Positions 46,811 to 64,000 of a stretch of DNA of 64,000 nucleotides are shown in pieces. The notes under the pieces were generated by a model. The model did no database searches, was not told the DNA's origin, and saw only the letters and a program-made list of their open reading frames with translations. The stretch is from Lachnospiraceae bacterium. Lineage in GTDB: Bacteria > Bacillota > Clostridia > Lachnospirales > Lachnospiraceae. The stretch lies in the NCBI GenBank assembly GCA_045112155.1, contig JBGUHN010000043.1, forward strand, positions 617 through 64,616. The letters are read 5' to 3'. How positions within the stretch are numbered: position 1 is the stretch's first letter; each line of letters starts with the position of its first letter. Made by a program: the position numbers and the translations under genes.

Positions 46811-47268
46811 TTCTTTGAGATTCTTTATAAAAAGCAAGTTGACGTTACTTGTACATTATTGGTAGTATTATAATGGCAAGTAATTGTATGGAATGATAAC
46901 GCTGACAATGATCTGTCGCGTTTATACGAATAATCCTAAGCTTTACTGCTGAAAGAGAGGGGTGGATGACTCCTATGATTGTAAAACTTGAGATACCGCG
47001 CATAAGGGGGAAACCCCATGAGATAAGGGAAACTATGAGGCTTGCTGTCATAGAGAGCAGGCGGGTCGCCATGTCGAACAAACAGAGGATACGGCGGTCA
47101 AAGACTCGAGAGAGAGTGTGGTTAAAATCCGCATCCCAAAATCCAAGATCTCCGAATGAGATATGGGGTTTTTAAGCAATAAATATATGTAACTCGTTGA
47201 CCAAAACACAAAATAGCATTTCCTATGAATTATAAAATAAATAAGGGAAATGGAGAAAGGAAAAGTTC

Positions 47269-48996
47269 ATGAAGAATCTTAAAAAAATCATGGCTCTGAT
47301 CGTTGCAATGGTAATGATCGTGGGCACAATGAGCAGCATGACCGTCTTTGCAGCTCAGGGCGCTGCAAAAGAAGACGGCAAAGTAGTCATCACAGGCTTG
47401 GATAAGGATGACACAGTAAAATTGTACAAGGTCATCGGCTGGACAGAGAGCACTGGCTGGGAACTTGAAGAGGGTTTTACAGTTCCTCAGTTTGATGGAA
47501 AACTTGGAACAAAGAATCAGGCTATTTCTATCGACACGGGTGTTGTCGAAACAATCAACGGCCAGATTACAGATACAATGGATCCGGTAGCAACCGCAAC
47601 TATTGATGCTTCCGGCAAGTTTGAAGCCGAAGTAGACCCCGGCATGTACATTGCCATTGTTACAGCCGCAACACCGGGTACAGTTTACAACCCGATCATT
47701 GTTTCCTCTGACTTCGTAGTTGATGGAAATTCTATCGATGCTTCTGCTGCTGATTCAGTTATCCCGAATTCCGTATCCGGTGCTGAAGCTGTTGCAAAGA
47801 AGAGCACACTTGAGCTCAAGAAGGAAGGCACAGACGAGACATCTGTCGATGGTAACAAGAATGAGACAGTAGCTGTTGGTGATACAGTCAATTTCAAGAT
47901 TGAGACAGAGATTCCTCCGTTCGCAACATACAACAACCCGATTTTCACCATCACTGATGAACTGTCTGATGGCATTAAACTGGGCGACGTAGAGACTATC
48001 GTAGTCACAAAGCCGGAAGGCGCTCATAGAGATACAGACTACACTGTTACAAAGGACGGTGATCATAAGTTCACAGTTAAGTTCGATAAAGATTATCTGA
48101 AGACAATTGCTGCAAATACTGATGTACAGATTGATTATCCGGCAACCATCACTTCCGATGCTGTAAAGTCTGTAAATCCGGAAAACAATACTGTAACTCT
48201 TGAGTATCAGAGAGATCCGAAGAGCAACAGTGATAAGACAACCGAGAAGGTTCGTGACATCACAAATCACTATTCCTTCACTATCGACGGTAACCTTCTT
48301 GGCGACGACAACTACAGCGCAACTGAAGTTGTCAAGGTTGGCGTATCCGCTGATGGCTCAGAAATCATTGAGAAAGTTACTCTTGCAAATCAGAACTCCG
48401 TTGGCGCTCTTGAGGGTGCTACCTTCAAGCTTGTTTATGCAGAAGCCGTTAAGGATAAAGATGGCAATACAGTACATGCTGCTAACGATATTGTTGAAAC
48501 ATATGACAAAGACGGACAGAAAATCACTTGGGATGATAAAAAGATCATCTCTGGCGCAGACGGACGTATCAACATTACTGGTCTTGATGCCGGCAAGTAT
48601 AAGCTGATCGAGGTTAAAGCTCCGAATGGCTACATCAAGATGCAGGAAGCTGTTGATGTCGAGATTCAGGCAACTGTTAAGAATGTTACTTATAAAGATG
48701 AAGACGGCTGCACAATCAACACAACTGAACTTGAGTCTTATAAGATCATCATTGGTGGCAAGGAAACAGCTAGCTACACAATCACAAACAGCAAGGACGT
48801 TACAAAGGCAACTTCTGACAAGGGCGATACTGTAGTTGGTATCGATGCAAGTTCCGGTAAGATCAAGAACACCAAGGGCGTTGAGCTTCCGAGCACTGGT
48901 GGCATCGGCACAACCCTGTTCTACATCATTGGTGCTATCCTTGTAGTTGGCGCTGGCATCCTCCTGGTAACACGCCGCCGCATGAGCGCAAAATAA
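47269..48996 (+). CDS. LPXTG-anchored pilin / Cna-B-type isopeptide-domain surface protein
   Basis: Signal peptide. C-terminal 'LPSTGGIGTTLFYIIGAILVVGAGILLVTRRR' sorting signal. 'GKYKLIEVKAPNGY' Cna-B-like domain. GGAGAAAGGA RBS. Confidence 0.8.
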   Translation: MKNLKKIMALIVAMVMIVGTMSSMTVFAAQGAAKEDGKVVITGLDKDDTVKLYKVIGWTESTGWELEEGFTVPQFDGKLGTKNQAISIDTGVVETINGQITDTMDPVATATIDASGKFEAEVDPGMYIAIVTAATPGTVYNPIIVSSDFVVDGNSIDASAADSVIPNSVSGAEAVAKKSTLELKKEGTDETSVDGNKNETVAVGDTVNFKIETEIPPFATYNNPIFTITDELSDGIKLGDVETIVVTKPEGAHRDTDYTVTKDGDHKFTVKFDKDYLKTIAANTDVQIDYPATITSDAVKSVNPENNTVTLEYQRDPKSNSDKTTEKVRDITNHYSFTIDGNLLGDDNYSATEVVKVGVSADGSEIIEKVTLANQNSVGALEGATFKLVYAEAVKDKDGNTVHAANDIVETYDKDGQKITWDDKKIISGADGRINITGLDAGKYKLIEVKAPNGYIKMQEAVDVEIQATVKNVTYKDEDGCTINTTELESYKIIIGGKETASYTITNSKDVTKATSDKGDTVVGIDASSGKIKNTKGVELPSTGGIGTTLFYIIGAILVVGAGILLVTRRRMSAK

Positions 48997-49262: not shown

Positions 49263-50753
49263 ATGGAAAAAACTTCATTTTTCACGGGAATTAAACAAGA
49301 AGTAAAGTCGTTTTTTGGAGCCGTTTCTAAGGCAAATGAAACAGTCTATCTTGTCTTACTGACTCTTTATGTCATTATTTATTTAATTCTGAAAGTCTTC
49401 TGGAATTCAAATGCTGACGGGATTGTTGCAACTATTAAGTATACCCTTCTTGGTGTTGTCATGTGGGGTGCAGCTGTCTATCTTTTTTTTGTAATAGCTG
49501 AATGGAAAAGTTTATGGAATGAGACTATATGGCTCATCCTTGTAGGGGTTGCTATCTTAGCGGCAACTTATTTTTTTAGTAAGAAGATGAGCACAAACTC
49601 TTATGAGGTTGTGATGGATATATTTTTCTGTATGATGGCATGCGGAAAGGATTATAAGAAAATCCTGCGCTGCATCCTTTGCGTTACAGTCGCAATGCTG
49701 ATTATTGCAGGAATTGGCATGCCGCTCGGCTTTACATCTGACGTCGGCAAACCGGACACAAGCGTACCTGGACACTCACTTGGAATTGAGTATCCTAACT
49801 CCTGGGGATACCTTGTGTTCTTAGCCCTGGCTCTTCTTTGGTATTTATATATCAGATTTAAACCGGCACTCACATTTATAGTCTTTTGGGCTGTCAGTGC
49901 GTTTATGTATAGCTACATAACCTGCCGAACGATAGCCGGAATTACAATCATTTTCCCATTTCTTGCTTTGGTTGTAAATTTCATAGAGAAGAGAATTGAC
50001 CGGAAGGTCGGCGAGGGCACATTTTATGGCAATAAGCCACTGCGATGGATCGTAACGGCTATTCCCTATCTTGCCTTTGCGTTCATGATGTTCTCAAGTA
50101 TGCAGGTCGATTGGTGGTACAAGTATTATCATGGACCCCTCAGAAATCTCGCATGGCGTTTTCTGATGGGTGGCCTTTATTTCAGGACTTACGGCATTCC
50201 TGTATTCGGAAATCCATATAGATCGAATGTCTATACTTATATAAATGTCCAGGGCGAATTCATTAAGGTGGGTATTCTCGACAGTTCATTTGCTGCCTAC
50301 CTGATCATGAGAGGCGCAGTATGGATGGCATATACACTGCTGTGGCTGTGCATAGCTCACTGGAAGGCTCTCAAAAAAAGAGATTATGCTATCATATTAA
50401 TCGGGACCATAATGCTGGGTTTTGCTATGATGGAACGTCCAGGACTTGATATGTGGTATAATTTTATTCTACTGTATCCGTTGGCTAAAGTAATCAGTAA
50501 GCCTGGAACAGAGGATGTACTGGAGTTTGCTGGTGTGGTAGAGCCCGAACATCATGGAGATACAGGGGAAATGCCAAGTCATGAGGATTCGTCAGACGTA
50601 CCTGAAATGAGGGCGGATGATGAGAAAGAACAGCTCAGTGACTTGGATACATCTGTCGCCATGGAGCCTGTGACAGAGGAAGGGATTGAACCGGAAATAG
50701 TAGACTTGGATACAACTGTTGAAACAGGACCAAAAGAAGAAGATACAGAGTAG
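49263..50753 (+). CDS. Polytopic membrane protein, possible polysaccharide polymerase/ligase-like, with acidic C-terminal tail
   Basis: 496 aa with 10 or more hydrophobic segments. Sits at the head of the polysaccharide locus. No diagnostic motif recognised. Confidence 0.35.
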   Translation: MEKTSFFTGIKQEVKSFFGAVSKANETVYLVLLTLYVIIYLILKVFWNSNADGIVATIKYTLLGVVMWGAAVYLFFVIAEWKSLWNETIWLILVGVAILAATYFFSKKMSTNSYEVVMDIFFCMMACGKDYKKILRCILCVTVAMLIIAGIGMPLGFTSDVGKPDTSVPGHSLGIEYPNSWGYLVFLALALLWYLYIRFKPALTFIVFWAVSAFMYSYITCRTIAGITIIFPFLALVVNFIEKRIDRKVGEGTFYGNKPLRWIVTAIPYLAFAFMMFSSMQVDWWYKYYHGPLRNLAWRFLMGGLYFRTYGIPVFGNPYRSNVYTYINVQGEFIKVGILDSSFAAYLIMRGAVWMAYTLLWLCIAHWKALKKRDYAIILIGTIMLGFAMMERPGLDMWYNFILLYPLAKVISKPGTEDVLEFAGVVEPEHHGDTGEMPSHEDSSDVPEMRADDEKEQLSDLDTSVAMEPVTEEGIEPEIVDLDTTVETGPKEEDTE

Positions 50754-50797: not shown

Positions 50798-52921
50798 ATG
50801 ATTAAACGAAATCAGGAGTATCTGAACCGCATAAACGCGGTCCTGGATTTCCTTCTTGTATTTCTTTCATATCTTTTTTCCGCATGGTTCCGCCTGAAGG
50901 TTCTTCACGGATGGTGGGAGAACCAGGGATTATCGCGCCCGATGATCATAGCATCCCTGTTCTATGCCGCCGGGCTTCTTATGATGCTCTCAATTCTCGG
51001 CTTCTATAATTCTACTCGTGTCCGTAAGCTTTCCTGGAAGCTTACCACCTTATTTATTGCGACCACGATTTCAATTTTTGCCGTAACGGCATTCATCTTT
51101 GTATTCAAAATCGAGGACGTATCCCGCGGTATTATCGCGATCTTTTACGTGCTGACACTGGCCCTCCTTGGCGGTAAGCAGATGTTGACGCGAGCCGTGC
51201 TGAATCAGCTGCGAAAGACCGGTTATAACATCAAGCACGAGATACTTGTAGGCACAGGAAAACTTGCAAAGCAATATCAGGAAGACCTGAGCAACGAGCC
51301 GGAACTCGGAATTCAGGTTGATAAAAGTGTGACGACGGACAGTGAACTGAAAGACGTTCTTAAGAGTACACACATCGATGAAGTTGTCATTGCACTTGAA
51401 CCGGAAGAATATGGCAACATCACGAAAATCATTGCTGTCTGTGAGAAGTATGGCGTCAAGTACTTCGTCATTCCGTTCTACAATGATATGATTCCTGCTC
51501 ACCCCGTGTTTGAGAGCGTCGGCAGGACCAGACTCGTCAATATGAGGGCAAATCGGCTTGAGAGCATAGGCTGGGCGGTTCTCAAGAGATCATTTGACTT
51601 TATCATGAGTGCGATTGGGCTGATCATACTAAGCCCGCTGCTTGCTTTTCTGGCAATTGGAGTGAAACTCAGCTCCCCGGGACCTGTCTTCTTCAGACAG
51701 GAGCGCGTCGGTCTGAACCGCAAGAATTTTGAAATGCTCAAGTTCCGGTCCATGGTCGTGAATGACACCTCTGACACAGCATGGAGCAAGAGAGGTGATA
51801 GTCGGCGTACAAAATTCGGTTCATTTATCCGCAAAACAAGCCTGGACGAACTGCCGCAGCTGATAAACGTCCTTAAAGGAGATATGAGCCTGGTAGGACC
51901 GCGGCCGGAGCTGCCGTACTTTGTGGATCAGTTCAAAGAAGAAATCCCGCTCTATATGGTAAAGCACCAGGTCAAGCCCGGCATAACTGGGTGGGCTCAG
52001 GTCAAAGGATACCGCGGTGATACCAGCATTAAGAAGCGCATAGAGCTTGATCTGTGGTATATTGACAACTGGAGTCCATTGCTCGATCTTCAGATTCTGT
52101 TCATGACTGTGCCGTGGGCGATGATCAATGACGAAAGATCCGTGAATGTTCGGGAATCCGACGTTAAGATCATCGTGGCAACCCATAAGCCCTATTGGAT
52201 GCCGTCAGATCCCCTTTATGTTCCGCTTCAAGTCGGTGCGGAAGGCAAAGAGAGCTTAGGCCTCACACCGGATAATACAGGAGAGAACATCAGCTATAAG
52301 AACGCCAATTACTGCGAGCTGACAGGTCTCTACTGGGCATGGAAGAATCTGCCCTGTGAATACCTTGGCCTGGCACATTACAGACGCCAGTTCACTATGC
52401 TTAAAGGGACAAGTGACAGAAGGGATGTGCTGACCTTGGATCAGGCCCAGCTGCTATTTGCAAATGTCGACGTTCTGCTTCCTAACAGGCGCAACTACTG
52501 GATCGAGACCAATTACAGCCAGTATGTGCATGCACATCACAAGGAAGACCTGGATGAGACCAGAAAAATCATAGAAGAGAAGTACCCAGAGTATATTCCC
52601 GCTTACGATAAATCGATGAAGAAGACCACCGGTCACAGATTTAATATGTTTATCATGAAGAAGGAATTGGCAGATGCTTACTGTGCATGGCTCTTCGATA
52701 TTCTCTTCGAACTGGAAAAACGTCTGGACATAAGCAGCTATAACAAGAACGACCAGCGCGTCTTTGGATTTGTGTCGGAGCGGCTGTTAGATGTGTGGCT
52801 GATGACCAACAATATCAAAAGCAAGGATATTCCGTATATCTTCCTTGAGAAGGAGAACTGGATCACTAAGGGCATCAACTTTATCATGAGGAAGATTGAC
52901 AGAAAACGGAAGGAAAGGTAA
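50798..52921 (+). CDS. Undecaprenyl-phosphate sugar phosphotransferase (WbaP/CpsE-type) fused to a DUF4422-type putative glycosyltransferase
   Basis: 'KRSFDFIMSAIGLIILSPLL..SPGPVFFRQERVG..FEMLKFRSM..DELPQLINVLKGDMSLVGPRP', then a C-terminal domain 'IIVATHKPYWMP..YVPLQVGA..NANYCELTGLYWAWKN..GLAHYRR'. Confidence 0.75.
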   Translation: MIKRNQEYLNRINAVLDFLLVFLSYLFSAWFRLKVLHGWWENQGLSRPMIIASLFYAAGLLMMLSILGFYNSTRVRKLSWKLTTLFIATTISIFAVTAFIFVFKIEDVSRGIIAIFYVLTLALLGGKQMLTRAVLNQLRKTGYNIKHEILVGTGKLAKQYQEDLSNEPELGIQVDKSVTTDSELKDVLKSTHIDEVVIALEPEEYGNITKIIAVCEKYGVKYFVIPFYNDMIPAHPVFESVGRTRLVNMRANRLESIGWAVLKRSFDFIMSAIGLIILSPLLAFLAIGVKLSSPGPVFFRQERVGLNRKNFEMLKFRSMVVNDTSDTAWSKRGDSRRTKFGSFIRKTSLDELPQLINVLKGDMSLVGPRPELPYFVDQFKEEIPLYMVKHQVKPGITGWAQVKGYRGDTSIKKRIELDLWYIDNWSPLLDLQILFMTVPWAMINDERSVNVRESDVKIIVATHKPYWMPSDPLYVPLQVGAEGKESLGLTPDNTGENISYKNANYCELTGLYWAWKNLPCEYLGLAHYRRQFTMLKGTSDRRDVLTLDQAQLLFANVDVLLPNRRNYWIETNYSQYVHAHHKEDLDETRKIIEEKYPEYIPAYDKSMKKTTGHRFNMFIMKKELADAYCAWLFDILFELEKRLDISSYNKNDQRVFGFVSERLLDVWLMTNNIKSKDIPYIFLEKENWITKGINFIMRKIDRKRKER

Positions 52922-52926
52922 ATTCT

Positions 52927-53820
52927 ATGGAAAAGGTTTGTGCCGTTATCGTCACATATAACCGGGTGACGATGCTTAAAAAGTGCCTCGATTCTCTTAA
53001 GCAGCAGACCGTTTCCTGTGATATACTGGTCATCGATAACGACAGCACAGATTCCACTGCGGAATATCTTGCCAAAAGAGATGACATAATTAATATTCGG
53101 CTGGATAAAAATCTGGGCGGGGCAGGCGGATTCAATAAAGGTTTGCGAAAGGCGGTTGAGCTCGGATATGATTATTTCTGGCTGATGGACGATGACGTTA
53201 TTCCTGATCCTGAAGCGCTTGAAAAGCTCCTTCTTGCAGACAAGGTACTTGATGGGAACTATGGGTGGCTGTCATCGGTTCCTCTCTGGACAGACGGAAA
53301 CGGCTGCAGGATGAATAAGCATAAGTTGAGTGGAGAGTTCTATGACAATATCGGTCTTTTGAAATATGGGCTGTTTAGAGCAAATCAGGCAACATTTGTC
53401 GGGCTGTTCATACGCCGGGCTACCATTTTATCAGCAGGCCTCCCCATAAAAGAGTTTTTTATCTGGGGAGATGACATAGAGTTCACGAGACGAATTGCTG
53501 TCAGGATGGGCATTCCCAGCTACATTGCCGGGCAGAGCATAGTTACTCATGCGATGAAGGATAATAACGGAAGCAATATAGCCCGGGACGGTGTTGAGCG
53601 TCTTTCAAGATATAACTATGCATACCGGAACGAAAACTATCTTTACAGAAAAGAAGGAATCAAAGGTTTTTGCTATTACTTTGCCAAGTGTGGGAAAAAC
53701 ATTGTATGTTCTCTTTTTTTGGCGAAAGATAACAAGCTGAAAAGAGTAGGGATTATCTTGAAGCAGTTTTTTACAGGTCTGTTTTTTAACCCGAAGGTAG
53801 AGTATATTGATCAAGAGTAA
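52927..53820 (+). CDS. GT2-family glycosyltransferase
   Basis: 'CAVIVTYNR..LKKCLDSLKQQT..ILVIDNDSTDST..NLGGAGGFNKG..WLMDDD'. Confidence 0.8.
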   Translation: MEKVCAVIVTYNRVTMLKKCLDSLKQQTVSCDILVIDNDSTDSTAEYLAKRDDIINIRLDKNLGGAGGFNKGLRKAVELGYDYFWLMDDDVIPDPEALEKLLLADKVLDGNYGWLSSVPLWTDGNGCRMNKHKLSGEFYDNIGLLKYGLFRANQATFVGLFIRRATILSAGLPIKEFFIWGDDIEFTRRIAVRMGIPSYIAGQSIVTHAMKDNNGSNIARDGVERLSRYNYAYRNENYLYRKEGIKGFCYYFAKCGKNIVCSLFLAKDNKLKRVGIILKQFFTGLFFNPKVEYIDQE

Positions 53821-53826
53821 GCGGAG

Positions 53827-54609
53827 GTGGACTTGAATCGTGTTTTACATACCCTGAGAAAGAATAAGTTTCTCTTTGAAGAACTGGTAATCAGGGACTT
53901 TAAACAAAAATATAAAAGAACAGCTCTCGGTATGCTGTGGAGCATACTGAATCCTTTACTTACATTACTTGTAATGCGGCTTGTTTTTACAAACTTTTTC
54001 GGAAGGAATACACCTTACTATACTACATATCTTTTTGCAGGAAACTTGATGTTCTCATATTATAGAGAACAGACCTCCGGCGGGATGAATTCTTTGATGA
54101 TGAATGCCCATATATTCACAAAGATCAACATTCCTAAATATTTGTTCCTGCTGTCCAAAAGCATATCAGCAATAATTAATTTTGGCCTCACATTGATTGT
54201 TTTCTTTTTCTTTGTGGCTATCGACGGTGTCCCGCCTCACTGGACCATGCTGGCAATTGTTTATCCGATTATAACATTAACAATGTTTAACGTCGGAGTA
54301 GGCATGGTTCTTTCGGCGTTATATGTATTTTTCAGAGATATATCATATATCTATGACATTTTTACACTTTTGTTGATGTACATGTCAGCCATATTCTACA
54401 AGGTCGATGATTTTCCGGTATGGATTCAGAGGGTATTTCTGATAAATCCTATATATGCCAATATCAAGTATGTGAGGGTGGCAGTAATCGACGGTAACCT
54501 TCCCTCTGTATCTTATCATCTTCTCTTGCTTCTCTATGGATCAATTGCCCTGGGCATTGGTGCGTGGATTTATAAGAAGTATAACCATCAGTTTTTATAT
54601 TATGTCTGA
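53827..54609 (+). CDS. ABC-2-type polysaccharide/teichoic-acid export permease (Wzm/TagG-like)
   Basis: 260 aa with six hydrophobic segments. 'FKQKYKRTALGMLWSILNPLL' N-terminal signature. GTG start after GCGGAG. Confidence 0.75.
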   Translation: MDLNRVLHTLRKNKFLFEELVIRDFKQKYKRTALGMLWSILNPLLTLLVMRLVFTNFFGRNTPYYTTYLFAGNLMFSYYREQTSGGMNSLMMNAHIFTKINIPKYLFLLSKSISAIINFGLTLIVFFFFVAIDGVPPHWTMLAIVYPIITLTMFNVGVGMVLSALYVFFRDISYIYDIFTLLLMYMSAIFYKVDDFPVWIQRVFLINPIYANIKYVRVAVIDGNLPSVSYHLLLLLYGSIALGIGAWIYKKYNHQFLYYV

Positions 54610-54623
54610 AGGATAAATGCTCT

Positions 54624-55547
54624 ATGACAACAGCGATTAAAGCGGATCATGTATCTATAAGATACATGAAGGGCGATTTTAAAGATATAGGTTTAAAAGA
54701 ATATGTCCTTAGAAAACTGACACATAAGTATAAAGTGGTAGAGTTCTGGGCAGATAAGGACGTTTCTTTTTCTATAAACCAAGGGGATATGCTTGGTATT
54801 ATTGGCTCGAATGGTGCAGGAAAGTCCACGCTGCTTAAGGCTATTTCAGGAATTATGGTGCCTACAGAAGGTAATATTTCTGTCAAGGGAAATATTGCGG
54901 CTTTATTAGAGCTGTCCTCCGGTTTTGACAGCGACTTGACGGTCAAAGAGAATGCATATCTGCGCGGTGCTATGCTTGGCTATACGCGGGAATTCATGAA
55001 CCAGAAGTACGAAGAAATAATTCACTTTGCAGAGCTGGAGGATTTTCAGGACCATCGGTTTAAACAGCTCTCAAGTGGAATGAAATCGCGACTTGCATTC
55101 TCGATTGCATGTCTTGTTGAGCCTGACATCTTGATTCTTGATGAAGTGCTAAGTGTAGGTGACGGAGCGTTCCGAAAGAAATCGGAAGGCAAAATGAAAG
55201 AAATTCTGGCTGGAGGAGTAACTGGTATTCTTGTTTCCCACAGTATTGAGCAGGTACGTACAATGTGCAACAAGATTTTGTGGCTCGACCATGGTAAACA
55301 AGTATGCTTTTCAGATGAGCCAAAGATGATTTGTGATGCGTATGAAGAATTCCTGATAACGAAAAAGCTGCCGGCTGGTAAAGAGGAAATTGAGTTAAAT
55401 GCTGTGAAATTCCAGGAACGCTTAGCAAAGCAAAGAGAAAAAAAAGAAAAAACTGAACTTGAAAGATTGCTTGACATATTAAAGAAAAGTGATCGATATG
55501 CTGCAACTGAGGCTGCTAGAGAGTATTTAAAAGGCATTGAAAGCTGA
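54624..55547 (+). CDS. ABC transporter ATP-binding protein (Wzt/TagH-like)
   Basis: Walker A 'GSNGAGKST', signature 'LSSGMKSRL', Walker B 'ILILDE'. C-terminal extension. Confidence 0.85.
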   Translation: MTTAIKADHVSIRYMKGDFKDIGLKEYVLRKLTHKYKVVEFWADKDVSFSINQGDMLGIIGSNGAGKSTLLKAISGIMVPTEGNISVKGNIAALLELSSGFDSDLTVKENAYLRGAMLGYTREFMNQKYEEIIHFAELEDFQDHRFKQLSSGMKSRLAFSIACLVEPDILILDEVLSVGDGAFRKKSEGKMKEILAGGVTGILVSHSIEQVRTMCNKILWLDHGKQVCFSDEPKMICDAYEEFLITKKLPAGKEEIELNAVKFQERLAKQREKKEKTELERLLDILKKSDRYAATEAAREYLKGIES

Positions 55548-55603
55548 AATTTGTAGTACATGGAAGAATGACTAGTTGTAATAATGTGAATATGGGAGAG
55601 ATT

Positions 55604-56647
55604 ATGAAAGATGAAAATCCCATAAAAGTCTCAGTTATTATACCCGTATACAACACCGAAAAATATCTGAGAGAATGTCTAGATAGTATAGTAAATCAGA
55701 CACTAAGGGAAATAGAAATAATCTGTGTAGATGATGGATCGACGGATGGGTCATTAGAGATTCTGCGGGAATATGAACATAAGGATTCTCGCATAAGGGT
55801 ATTTACTCAACCGAATAATAATGCCGGTGCAGCCAGAAACAATGGGTTCAGGTATGCTGTCGGAGAATATTTGTCATTCCTAGATTCGGATGATTATTTT
55901 GAACCACAGATGCTGGAAATGGCATATTTAAAGGCGAAGAATCAAAGTGCTGAGATCGTCGTTTTCCGATCAAATAGTTTTGACATGGACAGCAATTCCT
56001 ACAAGGAACTAGGATATACGATACGAAGAGCCAATCTTCCCGAACACGAGCCTTTCGCAGGAATAGAAGTAAAGAAGGACTTTTTCCAAACCTTTGTTGG
56101 CTGGGCATGGGATAAAATCTTTTTGAGAGAGTATATCGAGGAGAAGAACTTAAGATTTCAGGAACAGCGAACGACAAATGACATGTTTTTTACGTTCATG
56201 GCAATGGTTGAAGCAAATCGTATTGCAACGATAGAAGATGTTCTTGCGCATCATCGCACAAACGTAAGGACATCTTTGGAAGCAACAAGAACAAAATCGT
56301 GGGACTGCTTTTACTATGCTTTGCTCGCTTTACGGAAGGGGCTTATAGATGCGGGTTTATTCAGCCATTTCGAGAAAGATTTTATTAATTATAGCCTTCA
56401 TTTTTCTCTTTGGAATCTCAATAGGATGAAGGAACCTGAGCGAGAAGAGCTCTTTAATAAGTTGAAAAATGTATGGTTTGAAGAATTAGGAGTGTCAGAG
56501 TACCCTAAAAAAAATCTATATCATTGGAACGAAAAACTTCAATATAAACTTATTATGAGACTTCCTTATAATGGGGTGGAAAAGATGGTATACATATTTG
56601 TACAGTTTGGAAAAGACAACATTAAGAAGGCTTTTAAGAAAACTTAG
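55604..56647 (+). CDS. GT2-family glycosyltransferase
   Basis: 'VSVIIPVYNTEKYLRECLDSIVNQTLREIEIICVDDGSTDGS' and 'LDSDD'. ATG at 55604 after GGGAGAG. Confidence 0.8.
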   Translation: MKDENPIKVSVIIPVYNTEKYLRECLDSIVNQTLREIEIICVDDGSTDGSLEILREYEHKDSRIRVFTQPNNNAGAARNNGFRYAVGEYLSFLDSDDYFEPQMLEMAYLKAKNQSAEIVVFRSNSFDMDSNSYKELGYTIRRANLPEHEPFAGIEVKKDFFQTFVGWAWDKIFLREYIEEKNLRFQEQRTTNDMFFTFMAMVEANRIATIEDVLAHHRTNVRTSLEATRTKSWDCFYYALLALRKGLIDAGLFSHFEKDFINYSLHFSLWNLNRMKEPEREELFNKLKNVWFEELGVSEYPKKNLYHWNEKLQYKLIMRLPYNGVEKMVYIFVQFGKDNIKKAFKKT

Positions 56648-56715
56648 ATCTTGGATATAGTATTTGAGCTATTAGGCGTTTTGTTACACGTTATAAATAA
56701 TTAGAGGATGTAGAT

Positions 56716-57759
56716 ATGAAAAAAATGATCAAAGGAACTATAAGATACATAGTTGGAAAATCTGCAAAGACCCGAGAAATAATTACACGCTTAAATGACG
56801 TGGTTTTAGAGCATTATGATGATATTCCAAGTAGACAAAAAAGAAAATCTGAAGAGCTGTTTTCAAAAAAAGCTACATTTACTGGTTCAAGTATTGATAA
56901 TCTAAATTGTAGAATATTGACAAAAGAAGAGAGAGCCAATGAACTAAAGCAACTGTTTTACCGGAACTGTAATTACTATTTAAATCTGGAAAATCCAAAA
57001 ACGTTCAATCAAAAAATTCAGTGGCTAAAGCTTAATTGGTATGACGAAGATTTAAGTCGTGCAGTAGATAAGGCCGAATTCAAAAATTATATTGCGGAGA
57101 AAATAGGAGACGGATTTACGGTCCCTCTTTTTGGCGTATGGGAAAAAGAAAGTGAGATAGATTTTGATACTCTGCCGAATAGCTTTGTCTTGAAGTCAAC
57201 TGTACAGAGCGATGGACGACATATTATTGTGGTACATGACAAATCGTTAATCGATCGCGATAGATTGCTTACAACCTTGAGTTCATGGCTGCTTCCCAGA
57301 AATAATCTGTGCAGTTCCTATTGTGTTGCTTATTCAAAAGTTAAACCAAGAATAATAGCAGAGCAGTTTATTGAGGGCTTTGATGATTCGTTGACGGATT
57401 ATAAGTTCATGTGCTTCAATGGCAAGGTTGAGATGTTATTTGTTGTTTCTGATCGAAAGAAAAAGATGTCAATTAATTTTTATGATTTAGATTGGAATTT
57501 ATTACCTTTTACACGTAAGTATCCAAATACAAAACATCCAGTAAAAAAACCAAAAAACTTTGACAAAATGGTCGAAATTGCTAAAGAGCTTTCAAAGCCG
57601 TTTCCTTTTGTTCGTGTCGATTTTTATGAATCTGCGGAAGGCAAACTTTATGTTGGAGAGTTAACTTTTTATCCGGGAGGAGGATATGAGACTTTTCAAC
57701 CGATGGAGTGGGATTATAAATTAGGAGACATGTTACATCTTCCTGAGGCAAATATATAA
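56716..57759 (+). CDS. TupA-like ATP-grasp fold amidoligase, paralog 1
   Basis: 'FNQKIQWLKL', 'LPNSFVLKST', 'DYKFMCFNGK', 'FPFVRVDFYE..LYVGELTFYPGGG'. Confidence 0.7.
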   Translation: MKKMIKGTIRYIVGKSAKTREIITRLNDVVLEHYDDIPSRQKRKSEELFSKKATFTGSSIDNLNCRILTKEERANELKQLFYRNCNYYLNLENPKTFNQKIQWLKLNWYDEDLSRAVDKAEFKNYIAEKIGDGFTVPLFGVWEKESEIDFDTLPNSFVLKSTVQSDGRHIIVVHDKSLIDRDRLLTTLSSWLLPRNNLCSSYCVAYSKVKPRIIAEQFIEGFDDSLTDYKFMCFNGKVEMLFVVSDRKKKMSINFYDLDWNLLPFTRKYPNTKHPVKKPKNFDKMVEIAKELSKPFPFVRVDFYESAEGKLYVGELTFYPGGGYETFQPMEWDYKLGDMLHLPEANI

Positions 57760-57783
57760 TTATCAAGGATTAGGGTGGAAATA

Positions 57784-58788
57784 ATGATAAAAAAGGTTAA
57801 GAGAATTGCAAAGAAATTACCTGTGGTGGAAAAACTGTATAGAAGGGTAAAAAATAAAACTGTTGATGGTGATGTATTGTACCCGAGCGTTCAAGATATT
57901 CAATATAATAAACGTATTCATAACTATATGCTTTCGACCCATCTAGGCGAACCGATAAATCGTTGGGTCATAGAACAGATGTCTTATCGGGTTACCGGAA
58001 GGTTTCCGAATCTCGATAATCCCACAGGATTTAACGAAAAAATGCAGTGGATGCGACTGCATTATCATGACCCTTTAATGACAAGATGCGTTGATAAATG
58101 CAGCTTTAAAGATTATATCCGAGAAGTTGTTGGTGAGAAATATGTCGTTCCGCTCTATGGCGCATGGAATAATGTCAACGAAATAGACTTTGAATCTCTT
58201 CCAGAGGCATTTGTTCTTAAATCAACTTGGGGTTGGGGAGACCTTCAAAATATTATAGTCAAAAAGAAAGAAAAGCTAGATATAAATCGTGCAAAAGCGA
58301 TGATGGCAGAATGGCTTATGCCATGGAATAATTATTACTATCAGTCATTCGAATGGGATAGTAAAGATATCCCGCCACGCATTATAGCAGAAAAGTTGCT
58401 GCAACCTTCTAATGGGGAGATTGTAGATTATAAGTTTTATTGCTTTAATGGAATCTGCAAGTATTTCCTTGTGTGTAAGGACAGAAAGACTGAAACAAAG
58501 TACATTAACTATGACCTGAATTTTAATTGTTTAAAATTGTCGCCTAATAGTTATGTTACAAAAGAAGCTTTTCACGCGCCTGACAATTATTCAGAAATGC
58601 TGTCGTTAGCTGAAAAGCTGGCAAAGCCATTTCCTCTGGTACGTGTTGATTTTTATGATGTCGATGGAAAGATATACGTAGGAGAGATGACATTCTCGCC
58701 AGGTGGGGGATTTAATACATATTATAATGAGTGGGATGAGAAACTTGGATCATATTTAACTCTTCCAGAGGCTAATGTCCCGGAATAA
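57784..58788 (+). CDS. TupA-like ATP-grasp fold amidoligase, paralog 2
   Basis: 'FNEKMQWMRL', 'LPEAFVLKST', 'DYKFYCFNG', 'FPLVRVDFYD..IYVGEMTFSPGGG'. The ORF opens at GTG 57775. Confidence 0.7.
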   Translation: MIKKVKRIAKKLPVVEKLYRRVKNKTVDGDVLYPSVQDIQYNKRIHNYMLSTHLGEPINRWVIEQMSYRVTGRFPNLDNPTGFNEKMQWMRLHYHDPLMTRCVDKCSFKDYIREVVGEKYVVPLYGAWNNVNEIDFESLPEAFVLKSTWGWGDLQNIIVKKKEKLDINRAKAMMAEWLMPWNNYYYQSFEWDSKDIPPRIIAEKLLQPSNGEIVDYKFYCFNGICKYFLVCKDRKTETKYINYDLNFNCLKLSPNSYVTKEAFHAPDNYSEMLSLAEKLAKPFPLVRVDFYDVDGKIYVGEMTFSPGGGFNTYYNEWDEKLGSYLTLPEANVPE

Positions 58789-58823
58789 TAAATAGTTGCT
58801 TTTATGAAGCAAAGGGAATCTTG

Positions 58824-60128
58824 ATGAATCATGCAAACAATATATTAAAAAAGTCTTTGATTATGGTTACCATACTTCTGTGTTTGCCTATAATAGTGTG
58901 GGCTTTCGTGAGTGTCAGGAAGACAATCTCTGAAGATGCATCTTCTTCCGTAGTCTCTGAAGATGAAATATATAGATACGAAAAAGGAAAGCCTGCTTTT
59001 GGAGAATGGACAAGAGCTTCTAGTGATTGTGCACTTCCGCGGTATAGAAAAACGGGTAATGGTTTTTTTGAGCAAATTAAACCTACAACATCAAACACTG
59101 CAAGAATAATGTGCGCCGGTGATATGATGTGCGAGCCGGTTATGTCAAAGGCTGTTTTTAAGAATAACAAGTTTTTCTTCGAAGCATGCTTTGACAAAGC
59201 AAAAAAAGTATTTGAAGCATCTGATTTTGCCATTGCGAATTTGGAAACGTCAGTCGACCAAGATTCTCCTTATGCAATTGATAAACATGTATTAACCGAT
59301 CGATATCATTGTAACGCTCCGTTAGAGTATCTTGATGCAGTTCGTTGGGGTGGAATAGATGCCGTAACAATGGCGAATAATCATACCTGTGATACAGGCG
59401 TATCTGGTTTGCTTCACACAATTCAGAACGTAGAAGGTCGTGACCTTATCCATACAGGCGCATTCACTTCTCCGCAAGATAAGCATTATTTTATTGTTGA
59501 CATCAACGGAATTAAAGTCGCGTTTTTTTCATACACGCAACATATTAACAGCCGGCTTGATGAGAAGTGCTTTACGCCGGAAGGTCGACAAGTAATGCTT
59601 AGCTTGTATTCAAAGGAAAGATTAGAAAGTGATCTAAAAGCTGCTAGGGCTGATGGTGCGGAGTTTACGATAGTTTATATACATTTTTGGTGCAAGGACT
59701 ATACACATGAAGTCCAAGACAGCCAAAAAGCTTGCGCAAGAGAGATAGCAGAGGCTGGTATTGATTGCATTGTTGGTGGGCACCCTCATGCTGTCCAGCC
59801 TTATGACGAGATTGTCACTTCTGCTGGTAAACGTGTTCCTATTTGCTACTGTCTTGGTAATTTCATTACGAGCGATGTTAACAAGACCACGAGAACTAAT
59901 TATATTTACGAATTATTTCTTGAAAAAGATTCGTCTGGCCTCGTTCGTATTACACAAGAAAAGGTAATTCCTTGCAGTGTAGTTGAATTCCCTGAGAAAA
60001 GCGGCTATGTTGTATTCCCGACACCCAAAAACTGGCGAGACGGACAGGAGAATGCAGCGCTTCAGAAAGCAGAAGATTATATAAAAGAATACTTGGGTGA
60101 TAAAATCGAGATCGATTATAATGAATGA
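58824..60128 (+). CDS. CapA/PGA_cap-family metallophosphoesterase-like protein
   Basis: N-terminal TM. 'MCAGDMM', 'NLETSV', 'MANNHTCDTG', 'GGHPHAVQP'. Confidence 0.7.
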   Translation: MNHANNILKKSLIMVTILLCLPIIVWAFVSVRKTISEDASSSVVSEDEIYRYEKGKPAFGEWTRASSDCALPRYRKTGNGFFEQIKPTTSNTARIMCAGDMMCEPVMSKAVFKNNKFFFEACFDKAKKVFEASDFAIANLETSVDQDSPYAIDKHVLTDRYHCNAPLEYLDAVRWGGIDAVTMANNHTCDTGVSGLLHTIQNVEGRDLIHTGAFTSPQDKHYFIVDINGIKVAFFSYTQHINSRLDEKCFTPEGRQVMLSLYSKERLESDLKAARADGAEFTIVYIHFWCKDYTHEVQDSQKACAREIAEAGIDCIVGGHPHAVQPYDEIVTSAGKRVPICYCLGNFITSDVNKTTRTNYIYELFLEKDSSGLVRITQEKVIPCSVVEFPEKSGYVVFPTPKNWRDGQENAALQKAEDYIKEYLGDKIEIDYNE

Positions 60129-60258
60129 TAATTGTTTATCGCGTTAATGTTGAGGGAGTTGTATTTAACCTTCCATTCAGTTATCCTTATATGATTGTGA
60201 GGATGGGATAAATACCACTCCTTATATATTTTCCACATTATCATTAGGGGAAATGGTT

Positions 60259-61341
60259 ATGCCAAACAGTTCAAATAGAAATGCTCTGGATTTTTTAAAG
60301 TTTGTATTTTCTGTTGTCATCGTTTTATTTCATTCTCGAATGCTGACAGCAGACCAATCAGAATGGATTGTTATCAATGGACGAGCAGGTGTTGAATTTT
60401 TCTTTATTGTTTCCGGATGTTTGATGTGCGCATCATCTGACAGAAGAAGCAGCAGCGGCAATATCGGTTTCGATACATTCATTTTTATGCGGAATAAGAT
60501 ATGTCGTTTGATGCCAAATTTTCTAGTTGCATATATCATTTCGTTTATTGTTTACCACTACAACGCAGGAATAGGAAACTGGAGAGTGATAGTGACTAAT
60601 GCAGCAAAAGCTTTGCCAGAAATTCTGTTTATCAAGAACAGTGGAATCAGATTTGCAAGCTATAATGGACCTACTTGGTACATTTCTGCGATGCTTTTGA
60701 GTATGTTGGTATTATATCCATTCTTGCGAAAAATGGGTGATAGCTTTTATGTGCTTGCTACAGTAATAATGCTTTTCATCTTAGGATATTTTTTTCAAAC
60801 TTTCGGAACACTATCAGATCTTGAAAACTGGAATGGTTGGATATTAAAAGGAACGTTACGTGCTATGTCGGGCTTATGTGCTGGCTGCCTATGTTATAAA
60901 GGAAGCATTGTACTTGGGAGACATAGATGTACTGTATTTGGAAAAGCGGTTTTCACTGTGATTGAATGGGGAGGATATATTTTAGCCATTATCCTCTGCT
61001 GTTCCTTTTTCTCATCTGTATGTGATTACCTGATTTTTCTTCTGTTTATGATTAGTGTCACCATCACTTATGCAAATATTAGCTTTGATGATATCATCTT
61101 CCACGCCCACTTTTTTCATTGGCTCGGAATATATAGCTATTCCCTCTATCTTGGTCATTCCTGTTGGAGGGAATTCACAAGTAATATATATCCAATAGGG
61201 TGGAGTTTTAGACGGCGGGTAATCTGTTATTTGGTTATTTCTGTCTGGAATGGCCTGCTAATACATTATCTTTCTGTTTTTTTAAGAGAACTGGGACGGA
61301 TGAAGGGAAAGTCTCTTATGAAAATATTTTTCGTGCAATAA
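60259..61341 (+). CDS. Acyltransferase family 3 (OafA-like O-acyltransferase) membrane protein
   Basis: 'NRNALDFLKFVFSVVIVLFHS' plus about 10 TMs. The second ATG is preferred on RBS spacing. Confidence 0.75.
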   Translation: MPNSSNRNALDFLKFVFSVVIVLFHSRMLTADQSEWIVINGRAGVEFFFIVSGCLMCASSDRRSSSGNIGFDTFIFMRNKICRLMPNFLVAYIISFIVYHYNAGIGNWRVIVTNAAKALPEILFIKNSGIRFASYNGPTWYISAMLLSMLVLYPFLRKMGDSFYVLATVIMLFILGYFFQTFGTLSDLENWNGWILKGTLRAMSGLCAGCLCYKGSIVLGRHRCTVFGKAVFTVIEWGGYILAIILCCSFFSSVCDYLIFLLFMISVTITYANISFDDIIFHAHFFHWLGIYSYSLYLGHSCWREFTSNIYPIGWSFRRRVICYLVISVWNGLLIHYLSVFLRELGRMKGKSLMKIFFVQ

Positions 61342-61392
61342 GGCAACATCAATAAAAATGCTTATAATGATTTTGAATGAGGAGATATAATC

Positions 61393-62367
61393 ATGAATAC
61401 AGTTGGCTTTCTTATTAGTCACAAGAACAATGAAAAGCGGAGAGCTTTGATGCCATGTGATCTTGAAAAAATTCAACATTTGGATAACTTGATATTTGAA
61501 AATCGCTATGGAGAGTCTTTGGGTATATCTGAAGAAGAATATCTTGAGAAAGGAGTCAAATTTGCCTCCAGAGCCGAGGTCCTCAAAGCGGATGTACTTG
61601 TTGATGTTAAACTTGGCGATGCCGATTATCTCAATCAGATAAAGCCAGGAACGATATTATGTGGTTGGGCACACTCTGTGCAAAATATTGAGTTCACGAG
61701 CGAAACGCTTCGTTCAGGTCACACTGTTATAGCATGGGAGAATATCTTTGAAGATGGTCGCTATATTTTTTATAGAAATCGTGAAGTAGCTGGAGAGGCT
61801 GCGGTGATCCATGCGTTTAGATATTGTGGAAAAATGCCCTACGATGCTAAGGTAGCCATAATAGGAAATGGTCAGACAGCAAAGGGAGCATTACGTGTAC
61901 TTCATGGATTAGGTGCAAGCGTAGATGTTTACCCAAGAAAATTTGAAAAACTATTCATAAAAAAGATGTATGAATATGATGTGTTAATAAACTGCGTGAT
62001 GTGGGATACAGATAGAAAGGATAGGATTATTTATAGAGAGGATTTGAAAAAGATGCGTCCGGGGACATTAATTATTGATGTCAGCTGTGATCCCCATTTG
62101 GAGATTGAGACATCACATCCTACGACTATTGATGATCCTGTGTATGTAGTTGATGGAATCATTCACTATGCCGTTGATAATACTCCAGCAATGTATCCAT
62201 ATACTGTTACTAAAACCTTAAGTCGTAGTTTTGCTCATTATGTAGATGCACTTGTTACCGGTGATTACCCAGACAACCTTGCTGCAGCAATAGATGTGGA
62301 GCAAGGCATAATAAAAAATGAAGCAATACGTCGTTTCCGTGAGGCAAGAGGAATCTTTTGTAGGTAA
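61393..62367 (+). CDS. N5-(carboxyethyl)ornithine synthase-like AlaDH/PNT-family dehydrogenase
   Basis: 324 aa. 'GFLISHKNNEKRRALMP' N-terminus. Rossmann 'VAIIGNGQTAKGALRVL'. Overall layout of the CEOS/alanine dehydrogenase family. GAGGAG RBS. Confidence 0.6.
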   Translation: MNTVGFLISHKNNEKRRALMPCDLEKIQHLDNLIFENRYGESLGISEEEYLEKGVKFASRAEVLKADVLVDVKLGDADYLNQIKPGTILCGWAHSVQNIEFTSETLRSGHTVIAWENIFEDGRYIFYRNREVAGEAAVIHAFRYCGKMPYDAKVAIIGNGQTAKGALRVLHGLGASVDVYPRKFEKLFIKKMYEYDVLINCVMWDTDRKDRIIYREDLKKMRPGTLIIDVSCDPHLEIETSHPTTIDDPVYVVDGIIHYAVDNTPAMYPYTVTKTLSRSFAHYVDALVTGDYPDNLAAAIDVEQGIIKNEAIRRFREARGIFCR

Positions 62368-62373
62368 GGCGTT

Positions 62374-63261
62374 ATGACAGCGAAGAAGATGATAAAACTC
62401 CTGAAGGACATCTTATGCAGAATTTCGCCCGAATTACTTAGTAAATATCAATTTAGGCGTATGCTCGGAAGGAAATTGAATTTGGCATGTCCATCTGGAT
62501 TAGATGCCAAAATCATGTGGCTTAAATTTAATACTTATAGGAATAATCCCTTAGTATCAAAGTGCTCGGATAAATATGCGGTGCGAGAGTATATCATATC
62601 TTGCGGCTATCCGGAAATTATAAATGATTTATATGGCGTTTGGGAAAAAGCGGAAGATATTGATTGGGAACAACTTCCAGAAGCATTTGTGCTTAAGTGC
62701 AATCACGGATGTGGCTATAATTGGATTTGCCCTGACAAAGGTGCAGCTGATAAAAATAAAGTGATGGATCAGTTAAAACAGTGGATGAGGGAAGACTACT
62801 GGTTGCAATTTGCTGAGCTTCAATATCGCGATATCCATAAGTTGATAATCTGTGAGAAGTATTTGGGAAAGCATTTGGTAGATTACAAGTTTTATTGCTT
62901 TAATGGCAAACCTTTATATGTCCTTACTTGTGTTGGACGTGAAGGTGGACTGCCAAGCCATATGCCAGATCATGAGAATCCAAAGTTTTTCTTCTTTGAT
63001 CGTGATTGGAATATGTGTAAGCTAACAAATGATAGTTTGTATTGTTCAACAGATTTATATATTCCGCGTCCTGAAAATTTGGATAGAATGTGGGAGATTG
63101 CAGAAAAACTTTGTGAACCTTTCCCTTTTGTAAGAGTGGACCTTTATGACGTAAATGGTCATGTTGTTTTTGGTGAGTTAACATTTACCCCCTCTGCTGC
63201 TTTGGATACTAGTCGCTTACCTGAGACAGATAAATATTTTGGAGAGCTGCTTACACTTTAA
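62374..63261 (+). CDS. TupA-like ATP-grasp fold amidoligase, paralog 3
   Basis: 'LDAKIMWLKF', 'LPEAFVLKCNHG', 'DYKFYCFNGK', 'FPFVRVDLYD..VVFGELTFTP'. Confidence 0.7.
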   Translation: MTAKKMIKLLKDILCRISPELLSKYQFRRMLGRKLNLACPSGLDAKIMWLKFNTYRNNPLVSKCSDKYAVREYIISCGYPEIINDLYGVWEKAEDIDWEQLPEAFVLKCNHGCGYNWICPDKGAADKNKVMDQLKQWMREDYWLQFAELQYRDIHKLIICEKYLGKHLVDYKFYCFNGKPLYVLTCVGREGGLPSHMPDHENPKFFFFDRDWNMCKLTNDSLYCSTDLYIPRPENLDRMWEIAEKLCEPFPFVRVDLYDVNGHVVFGELTFTPSAALDTSRLPETDKYFGELLTL

Positions 63262-63310
63262 TAGTGTGATAAATGATAAGGTTTTTCCTCAAATTGAAGA
63301 GTGATGTGAT

Positions 63311-63427
63311 ATGTCTTTTAATACTTTGGAGTTCATGCTTTTACTTGCAGTGACGACGAGCATGTACTTTCTACTACCATTTAAGCTACGCAATCCCTTA
63401 TTGTTGATCATTCCAGGAACGATATGA
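63311..63427 (+). pseudogene. Truncated MBOAT (DltB/AlgI-like) N-terminal remnant, 38 codons
   Basis: 'MSFNTLEFMLLLAVTTSMYFLLPFKLRNPLLL' matches the usual MBOAT N-terminus. A stop follows after 38 codons. Confidence 0.55.
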
Positions 63428-64000
63428 AATTGGACGATGTTCGCGATCCCTTTGTAAGCAGAAAGTATAACTATTACAAAGGCGGATACCCACAGTACAA
63501 CTATACTACTAACGACGAACTATTCTGGGACAAGGTTTTTAACGGCCCTGAAATCAATGAGGTGAGCCTAAAATATGTACCGATGATTAAACGGCTCTGC
63601 GAGGAAAACGGCATCGCAATGGCTATCATTAAGAGCCCTAATTACAGCCGATGGGGGTATGATGATAAGCAGACAAAAATTGTACGAGACTACGCTGCAG
63701 AACTAGGCGTACCCTTTATAGATTTTCACCTTAAAGAAAACTGCAACTTTGAGGAGTGGGATTACGGCTATGAGACTGGTCGCTTGAATGTATTCGGCGT
63801 GAAGAAGTTAAGCGAAACCTTGGGACGATACCTGTCTGAGGACTTTGGTTTACAGCCGACTATATTGTCTGAGAAGGATAAGGCTGCGTGGGATGAGTGT
63901 GTGGACTGGTATTACAAGAAAGCGGAAGAGAACGGGTGCAGTATAACGGAGGGGCGAATTGCCCAAATATGCAACCGTGATAGTGCGATTCGCCTACGCT
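63424..64000 (+). CDS. SGNH/DltD-like acyltransferase-partner protein, apparently N-terminally truncated; open to the window end
   Basis: The frame is open only from 63385, with the first ATG at 63424 overlapping the remnant stop (ATATGA). No N-terminal TM. 'YETGRLNVFGVKKLSETLGRYL' resembles SGNH block V. GC is higher than in the segment to its left. Confidence 0.4.
   Translation, partial: MKLDDVRDPFVSRKYNYYKGGYPQYNYTTNDELFWDKVFNGPEINEVSLKYVPMIKRLCEENGIAMAIIKSPNYSRWGYDDKQTKIVRDYAAELGVPFIDFHLKENCNFEEWDYGYETGRLNVFGVKKLSETLGRYLSEDFGLQPTILSEKDKAAWDECVDWYYKKAEENGCSITEGRIAQICNRDSAIRLR

Follow-up and report, generated by a model that had tools for sequence, protein, structure and literature searches.

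The serotype-defining epitopes of Proteus and Providencia have long been known to include amide-linked amino acids on polysaccharides, such as the opine N-epsilon-(1-carboxyethyl)lysine. The N5-(carboxyethyl)ornithine synthase (CEOS; EC 1.5.1.24) of Lactococcus uses NADPH to condense pyruvate reductively with the side-chain amine of ornithine or lysine, and the TupA-like family of ATP-grasp proteins takes its name from TupA of the Bacillus halodurans teichuronopeptide. Two O-antigen structures carry this residue: the trisaccharide repeat of Providencia rustigianii O14, in which galacturonic acid (GalA) is amidated with N-epsilon-(1-carboxyethyl)-L-lysine (PMC10609480), and Proteus mirabilis O13, which contains GalA6(R-Cet-L-Lys) (PMC5560731, Table S4). 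In Campylobacter jejuni HS:2, which makes an ABC-type capsule, the TupA-like C-terminal domain of Cj1438 amidates glucuronic acid (GlcA) at its C6 carboxylate (PMC11800379). The searchable literature yielded no gene-level account of carboxyethyl-lysine or opine decoration of polysaccharides, and a paper on Proteus O-antigen genetics does not discuss CEOS-like or ATP-grasp genes. Here, we analyze a gene cassette that combines three TupA-like genes with a CEOS-like gene in a Lachnospiraceae bacterium (assembly GCA_045112155.1, contig JBGUHN010000043.1, positions 617 to 64,616). This whole stretch of 64,000 nucleotides is referred to as the window. As a whole, the cassette is best explained, with somewhat better than even confidence, as encoding an ABC-exported acidic glycopolymer decorated with amino acids and an opine.

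The plus strand between 50798 and 63261 holds eleven intact open reading frames (ORFs) with family-length products, separated by gaps of 6 to 124 nt (ORF map and Pfam scans):

50798..52921, plus strand: WcaJ/EPS_sugtrans-type initiating polyprenyl-phosphate hexose-1-phosphate transferase fused to DUF4422 (Bac_transf 241 bits, CoA_binding_3, DUF4422 300 bits)
52927..53820, plus strand: family 2 glycosyltransferase, GT2a (PF00535, 79.6 bits)
53827..54609, plus strand: ABC-2 type exporter permease (PF01061, 50.1 bits)
54624..55547, plus strand: ABC exporter ATPase (PF00005, 93.4 bits)
55568..56647, plus strand: family 2 glycosyltransferase, GT2b (PF00535, 142.8 bits)
56716..57759, plus strand: TupA-like ATP-grasp protein 1, TupA1 (PF14305, 192.9 bits)
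57775..58788, plus strand: TupA-like ATP-grasp protein 2, TupA2 (PF14305, 178.9 bits; GTG at 57775 opens the ORF, alternative ATG at 57784)
58821..60128, plus strand: CapA-like protein (PGA_cap, calcineurin-like fold; PF09587, 190.4 bits)
60253..61341, plus strand: acyltransferase-3, integral membrane protein (PF01757, 67.4 bits)
61393..62367, plus strand: short CEOS-like enzyme of the alanine dehydrogenase (AlaDH)/PNT family, 324 aa (AlaDh_PNT_N, PF05222, and AlaDh_PNT_C, PF01262)
62374..63261, plus strand: TupA-like ATP-grasp protein 3, TupA3 (PF14305, 141.4 bits; begins 6 nt past the CEOS-like stop)

Pfam confirmed all six family assignments proposed in the sequence-only reading of this DNA (three TupA-like proteins, CapA, acyltransferase-3, and AlaDH/PNT), and the ORF map bore out its placement of these genes behind an ABC-2 exporter and GT2 genes on one strand. 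The PF14305 matches (cut-off, 25 bits) span profile positions 1 or 2 to 240 of 241 in TupA1, TupA2, and TupA3, and the acyltransferase-3 match covers positions 2 to 323 of the 326 in PF01757 (cut-off, 31 bits). In NCBIfam, the phosphoglycosyl transferase scored 428 bits with TIGR03023, over the cut-off, and no model naming the TupA-like, acyltransferase-3, or CapA-like proteins of the cassette was found. Consistently with the proposed ABC-dependent layout, which the adjacent permease/ATPase pair, the GT2 genes, and the phosphoglycosyl transferase substantiate, Pfam and NCBIfam scans detected no Wzx in the locus. The likely product is an acidic glycopolymer that ATP-grasp ligases amidate and the ABC transporter exports.

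The three PF14305 genes of the cassette are the only ones in the genome, which is 97.4% complete, and thus their arrangement is not due to chance; among 400 sampled genomes of the class, 53 have PF14305 genes scoring over the cut-off, mostly in one or two copies each. TupA1, TupA2, and TupA3 are 37 to 40% identical in pairwise comparisons (TupA1 versus TupA2, 40%) and share K160 (in FVLK), D228-Y-K230, R300-V-D302, and E315 as invariant residues, which we take, from general knowledge of ATP-grasp enzymes, to include the ATP-grasp lysine and the acidic Mg-binding positions. The TupA1 ATG is preceded by the ribosome-binding site AGAGGA. A PDB sequence search with TupA1 returned no match at E values up to 1. 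In Butyrivibrio sp. TB, a single 681-aa GT2-TupA protein (5665-7752) scores 430 bits against GT2b and 534 bits against TupA1, a Muribaculaceae metagenome-assembled genome (MAG) encodes a comparable fusion, and such fusions belong to the TupA1 clade; on this sequence evidence, GT2b and TupA1 are the split form of a GT2-TupA fusion. By analogy, Cj1438 provides the best experimental anchor for the putative activity of the cassette ligases, and TupA1 is predicted to act on the growing chain by amidating the carboxyl of a uronic acid. TupA3 is likely the cognate ligase of the CEOS-like step, i.e., of an opine or diamino acid, since it falls in a clade with 8 of 11 members directly beside a CEOS-like gene and starts 6 nt after the CEOS-like stop.

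The CEOS-like gene is patchily distributed: of 399 genomes sampled from the class, 7 carry it, and it was found in none of the 12 other genomes from the family of the window. Four of the seven carriers have a TupA-like gene no more than ∼1.5 kb away, and in three of them, including the window, the two genes are direct neighbors; only 53 of 400 class genomes have a TupA-like gene at all. A broader scan with one genome per species retrieved more than 518 relatives, from which the best 80 loci were taken with 10-kb flanks; the 75 of these with flanks of at least 8 kb made up a census annotated with the proteins of the window and with neighboring families that were clustered and then identified by Pfam. 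An ATP-grasp ligase occurs within 10 kb in 40 of the 75 loci (TupA-like in 25, the sugar-transfer-associated ATPgrasp_ST in 20, and RimK-like in 4), along with UDP-glucose/GDP-mannose dehydrogenase (Ugd) in 19, NAD-dependent epimerase in 22, and a CapA-like gene in 13. The search for CEOS-like genes next to TupA-like genes in polysaccharide loci, suggested together with the sequence-only reading, was thus strongly positive across phyla, and it links CEOS-like genes in function to the ATP-grasp amidoligases of glycan loci. On the CEOS tree, direct TupA adjacency requires 11 changes versus 19 with shuffled labels (none of 500 shuffles as low), and it occurs in both Bacillota and Bacteroidota. 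Across three phyla, the partners of CEOS-like genes come from three different families of ATP-grasp ligases, which argues that the constant element is the making of an N-carboxyalkyl amino acid and its ligation rather than common operon ancestry.

In Butyrivibrio sp. TB (FOER01000006.1, 5710-16666), five ATP-grasp genes, i.e., a GT2-TupA fusion, one TupA-like gene, and three ATPgrasp_ST genes (one with an LRR_5 domain), lie around the CEOS-like gene, ahead of an ABC-2 exporter and close to transposases, an arrangement suggestive of mobility and of a side chain that is longer and peptide-like. The CEOS, TupA1, and TupA3 orthologs of Butyrivibrio sp. TB are 67 to 78% identical to the proteins of the window. 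Five MAG loci assigned to very different taxa, including Clostridiales and Phascolarctobacterium (L022, L023, L027, L028, and L033), carry near-identical CEOS-like genes with an ABC-2 permease/ATPase pair, matching that of the window at ∼290 and 230 bits, ∼8 kb away on the opposite strand. In a sixth member of this clade, labeled Collinsella (L025), the flank is too short to show the pair. The near identity of these genes in distant taxa could reflect recent horizontal spread or binning errors.

A parallel comes from Proteobacteria. In a capsule-type locus on an Escherichia coli plasmid, the order is wza-wzb-wzc, a WecA-like gene, a 322-aa "hypothetical" protein, and a 371-aa CEOS-annotated protein 32% identical to that of the window, followed by wzx, glycosyltransferases, an EpsG-type polymerase, an epimerase, and a nucleotide-sugar dehydrogenase. 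The 322-aa protein is homologous, with 99.7% probability (hhalign), to a RimK-like ATP-grasp cluster whose members neighbor CEOS-like genes in Bacteroidota. It did not match the TupA profile. Homologs of the proteobacterial CEOS-like protein were found in Aeromonas, Shewanella, Vibrio cholerae, Edwardsiella, and Providencia rettgeri. In the latter, a block of ATP-grasp, CEOS-like, wzx, glycosyltransferase, wzy-like, epimerase, and ugd genes directly follows cpxA, and the same ATP-grasp/CEOS-like/wzx/ugd block is found in V. cholerae and on the E. coli plasmid. By comparison with the known O-antigens, a cassette of the P. rettgeri type, with ugd, uronate epimerase, two to three glycosyltransferases, one ATP-grasp gene, and one CEOS-like gene, would constitute the gene set needed for a carboxyethyl-lysine-GalA structure.

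CapA had been read from the sequence as part of the poly-gamma-glutamate machinery, a view that the genome does not sustain: a search for CapC (PF14102) that detected it in Bacillus subtilis as a control found none in the 97.4%-complete genome, and Pfam scans showed neither capB nor capC in the locus, capB not having been searched separately. In the CapA-like protein, an N-terminal hydrophobic helix after basic residues serves as membrane anchor, which should place the catalytic domain on the outer side of the membrane. At least seven other loci have a CapA-like gene immediately next to a CEOS-like gene. A profile built from 15 CEOS-linked CapA-like proteins strongly matched a single solved family, that of MslH (8GQ9; E 8e-37), the epimerase of the C-terminal Trp of a lasso peptide, in which mutagenesis identified eight needed residues: Asp11, Glu44, Asn87, His88, Asp91, His259, His261, and His295 (PMC10406935). 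Their equivalents in the protein of the window, each invariant in the 15 CEOS-linked CapA-like proteins, are as follows:

D101, equivalent to MslH Asp11 (outside the printed alignment; inferred from the GD motif)
E142, equivalent to MslH Glu44
N187, equivalent to MslH Asn87
H188, equivalent to MslH His88
D191, equivalent to MslH Asp91
H288, equivalent to MslH His259
H323, equivalent to MslH His295

The position of His261 is occupied by Gly in the CapA-like proteins, and the retention of seven of the eight residues is perhaps general to the PGA_cap family. Since the alpha-carboxylate of an N-alpha-uronoyl amino acid is free, as at a peptide C terminus, it is a reasonable hypothesis that the CapA-like protein is a candidate post-export epimerase of the amino-acid substituent, and its predicted role should shift from polyglutamate synthesis to that of an MslH-like ectoenzyme.

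These data also bear on the possibility that the three ligases and CapA build a peptide or poly-amino-acid chain on the glycan, or co-polymerized with it, as in teichuronopeptide. The origin of the TupA family name, the presence of three ligases in one cassette and of up to five ATP-grasp genes in related loci such as that of Butyrivibrio, and the two free carboxyls that an opine would leave open to extension are all compatible with such a chain. Nevertheless, we consider it unlikely, because the lack of a detectable CapC speaks against a PgsBCA-type polyglutamate synthase, the member with measured activity cited here, Cj1438C, makes single amides on GlcA (PMC11800379), and the minimal proteobacterial cassette has one ligase only. 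The sequence-only reading proposed up to three different amino acids on the glycopolymer; a short peptide or branched side chain made by successive ligases is just as possible.

The CEOS-like protein aligns with the CEOS-annotated protein of Lactococcus lactis at 31% identity over 291 residues (E 3e-42) and with AlaDHs at 28 to 31%. In an alignment of the window family with the Lactococcus protein, one proteobacterial relative, and two AlaDHs, its residues R16, K73, H94, and D229, which are invariant in the family, correspond to the catalytic/pyruvate-binding Arg15, Lys74/75, His95/96, and Asp269/270 of AlaDH; reductive amination of a 2-oxo acid by this enzyme is well supported by its sequence. 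A 12-residue and a ∼30-residue deletion relative to AlaDH are common to the window family and the Lactococcus protein. Where AlaDHs carry an acidic residue after beta-2, the window protein has Pro-Arg-Lys, a hint of NADPH use. In one tblastn search of plasmids, CEOS-annotated matches scored 158 and 125 bits and AlaDHs at most 110 bits, and homologs with 68 to 78% identity are named N5-(carboxyethyl)ornithine synthase by NCBI and JGI (the 78% one by NCBI). The best PDB relatives are AlaDHs, at ∼94 bits. Assignment as alanine dehydrogenase by the NCBIfam equivalog model was ruled out by a score of 99 bits, compared with a cut-off of 392 bits.

Membership of the AlaDH/PNT family, retention of all AlaDH catalytic residues, an identity to AlaDHs about equal to that to CEOS, and the name "alanine dehydrogenase" given to distant relatives in some sources would all suit an amino-acid dehydrogenase supplying, e.g., L-alanine from pyruvate and ammonia, in which case the polymer would bear standard amino-acid amides only and no opine. 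This explanation seems to us quite unlikely: the protein lacks the 12-residue loop and the ∼30-residue segment of AlaDH just as the Lactococcus CEOS-annotated protein does, CEOS-annotated proteins outscore AlaDHs by the same method, and a housekeeping alanine supply would not account for tight adjacency to ligases in many phyla. Membership of the window enzyme in the CEOS subfamily is plausible, and the presence of an opine-type N-carboxyalkyl amino-acid substituent on the polymer is probable, at about even odds.

From the observed families, catalytic residues, and recurrent gene linkage we infer the following chemical steps. A horizontally acquired, operon-like cassette would direct the synthesis of an undecaprenyl-linked acidic glycopolymer on the cytoplasmic face of the membrane, the decoration of its carboxyls with amino acids, and its export by the ABC-2 system. 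The phosphoglycosyl transferase-DUF4422 protein and the two GT2 enzymes would build the chain, with uronic acids provided by the ugd genes and epimerase on another contig (C39). TupA1, acting beside GT2b as in the fused Cj1438, would spend ATP to join the amine of an amino acid to a uronate carboxyl in amide linkage, and TupA2 and TupA3 would add more amino acids, either on other glycan carboxyls or on the carboxyls of the first substituent. The CEOS-like enzyme would use NAD(P)H to condense an amine reductively with a 2-oxo acid (pyruvate being the most likely one), yielding an N-(1-carboxyethyl) opine residue. Lysine or ornithine most likely provides the amine from its side chain, with TupA3 as the partner ligase, and the opine may be made free and then ligated or be made on polymer-bound lysine. 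After export, the acyltransferase-3 would probably O-acylate the polymer, and the outward-facing CapA-like protein would modify the amino-acid substituent, possibly by epimerizing it. An extension of this scheme, in which CEOS-like and ATP-grasp enzymes form a widespread, phylum-crossing module of gut Clostridia, Bacteroidota, and Proteobacteria for N-carboxyalkyl amino acids on surface glycans, and the CapA-like proteins often found beside them are extracytoplasmic MslH-type epimerases that invert, after export, the stereocenter next to the free carboxylate of the amide-linked amino acid or opine, is as a whole rather unlikely.

Several observations weigh against a glycopolymer with an opine substituent. 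The interpretation rests on comparative genomics, not on the polymer chemistry of the organism or its close relatives. About 30 of the 75 census loci (in Planococcus, Christensenellaceae, Erysipelotrichaceae, and some Clostridium) have no ligase or glycan genes, so the CEOS-like family has stand-alone as well as glycan contexts and is not exclusively glycan-linked. For the "CEOS-like" label of the sequence-only reading, the evidence is mixed: the shared deletions, the catalytic residues, and the higher tblastn scores favor it, whereas the identity is only 31% and the Lactococcus CEOS forms a long branch outside the large clade of the window (FastTree). As 31% identity to CEOS is about the same as the 28 to 31% to AlaDHs, the amine and 2-oxo-acid substrates are not readable from the sequence. 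A search for longer proteins with the CEOS-like domain retrieved no CEOS-ligase fusion, only two proteins (756 and 711 aa) whose extra parts matched no Pfam domain and no ligase, CapA, or glycan family of the related loci. The assembled locus has no ugd gene, the contig ending just downstream. On the proteobacterial side, no Proteus homolog appeared among the best 120 matches to the CEOS-like protein, and the link between the cpxA-linked block of P. rettgeri and a carboxyethyl-lysine structure is inferential.

In non-glycan contexts, the CEOS-like gene recurs beside a gene for a large protein with CotH-kinase and lamin-tail domains (L048:6357-9704; Clostridiaceae/Christensenellaceae group) or one for a 1383-aa protein with tetratricopeptide repeats and a peptidase C39-like domain (L039:11431-15579; Planococcus group).

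Near the end of contig C39 (L109:7765-11607), two UDP-glucose 6-dehydrogenase-type genes in tandem precede a gene for an NAD-dependent epimerase, indicating that the genome can make uronic acids. The first dehydrogenase ORF (506 aa) opens with an XRE-type helix-turn-helix segment, which may be a fusion or an over-long ORF call. Three LCP ligase genes lie elsewhere in the genome; attachment of the polymer to the wall is possible, and it could equally be a capsule or exopolysaccharide.

The source genome is assembled in 90 contigs, and the window is nearly the whole of one that stops ∼450 nt past its end, so the locus may continue elsewhere. The left part of the window has a GC content of ∼0.50-0.55 and the cassette one of 0.35-0.40, a drop that fits acquisition from a low-GC donor. 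The cassette stretch is present in animal gut metagenomes, and an independent 8.1-kb contig from a different study spans 55343-63408 in one piece with ∼96% identity and 345 substitutions. Its four small indels (58789, 61353, 61365, and 63312) are all intergenic, which argues against an assembly artifact and indicates that the reading frames are kept in a diverged strain. Although the GC drop, the end of the contig at the cassette edge, and the lack of an RNA run among those listed for the stretch could suit a decaying, recently transferred fragment that is unexpressed or productless, this is highly improbable, given the eleven intact, family-length ORFs at 50798-63261 with conserved catalytic motifs and the confinement of all listed indels to intergenic spacers in an independent strain diverged by 4%.

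Immediately upstream of the cassette lies one further ORF:

49263..50753, plus strand: polytopic membrane protein, 496 aa, with an acidic Glu/Asp-rich C-terminal tail (many hydrophobic segments in the translation)

It had no match in Pfam or NCBIfam, and its nearest named Atlas clusters, a weak lead, are the O-antigen ligase (Wzy_C) family and the WcaD polymerase; it is possibly a Wzy/WaaL-like polymerase or ligase, and its membership of the locus is uncertain. Directly left of the glycan locus, at 44963-48996, Pfam identified signal peptidase I, sortase, and LPXTG Cna-B-type pilin genes. The last ORF of the contig (317 aa; 63424-63999 in the window, running on past its end) has only a weak GH85_C match, and the independent 8.1-kb contig ends at 63408, the same edge as this ORF.

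The main value of these findings lies in candidate genes for a long-known and genetically unassigned polysaccharide decoration, the pairing of CEOS-like and ATP-grasp ligase genes being a concrete, testable gene pair for the carboxyethyl step. If the proposal is true, many uncultured gut Clostridia and Bacteroidota would display opine- or amino-acid-decorated glycans, with a bearing on immune recognition, phage receptors, and charge-dependent colonization. For orphan CapA-like proteins, the analysis also points to a function other than polyglutamate synthesis; were the epimerase reading true, members of the CapA/PgsA family would in general act after export as epimerases of the amino acids on cell-surface polymers.

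Each of the described systems resembles the cassette in part. The teichuronopeptide and PgsBCA systems share with it the family names (PF14305 and PF09587) and an acidic wall polymer of uronic acids together with amino acids, whereas the genome of the window has no detected CapC, the locus has its own glycosyltransferases and ABC exporter, and nothing indicates polyglutamate. MslH belongs to the same Pfam family as the CapA-like protein and acts on a residue with a free alpha-carboxylate, as an N-alpha-uronoyl amino acid has; it is, however, cytoplasmic and acts on a ribosomal peptide, while the CapA-like protein is predicted to be membrane anchored and outward facing. The Lactococcus CEOS is likewise a short AlaDH/PNT protein (the two are within 310-324 aa) with the same deletions and the same Arg/Lys/His/Asp set, but the copy of its gene examined here stands alone among stress genes on a plasmid with no glycan link in that locus, whereas the window family is a separate clade often found in glycan loci. 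Cj1438, a GT2 fused to a TupA-like amidoligase, has by its description (PMC11800379) the architecture of GT2b plus TupA1, fused in Butyrivibrio; it attaches serinol or ethanolamine, derived from their phosphates, in place of the amino acids proposed for the window ligases, and C. jejuni has one such domain without a CEOS-like, CapA-like, or acyltransferase-3 partner, compared with three ligases and their partners here. Finally, the Providencia and Proteus O-antigens carry the end product predicted for the window. The P. rettgeri set of ATP-grasp, CEOS-like, ugd, and epimerase genes follows the same logic, although the proteobacterial cassette is Wzx/Wzy-dependent rather than ABC-dependent, has one RimK-like ligase and no CapA-like gene instead of three TupA-like genes and a CapA-like gene, and encodes a CEOS-like protein of 371 aa, 32% identical to the 324-aa enzyme of the window.

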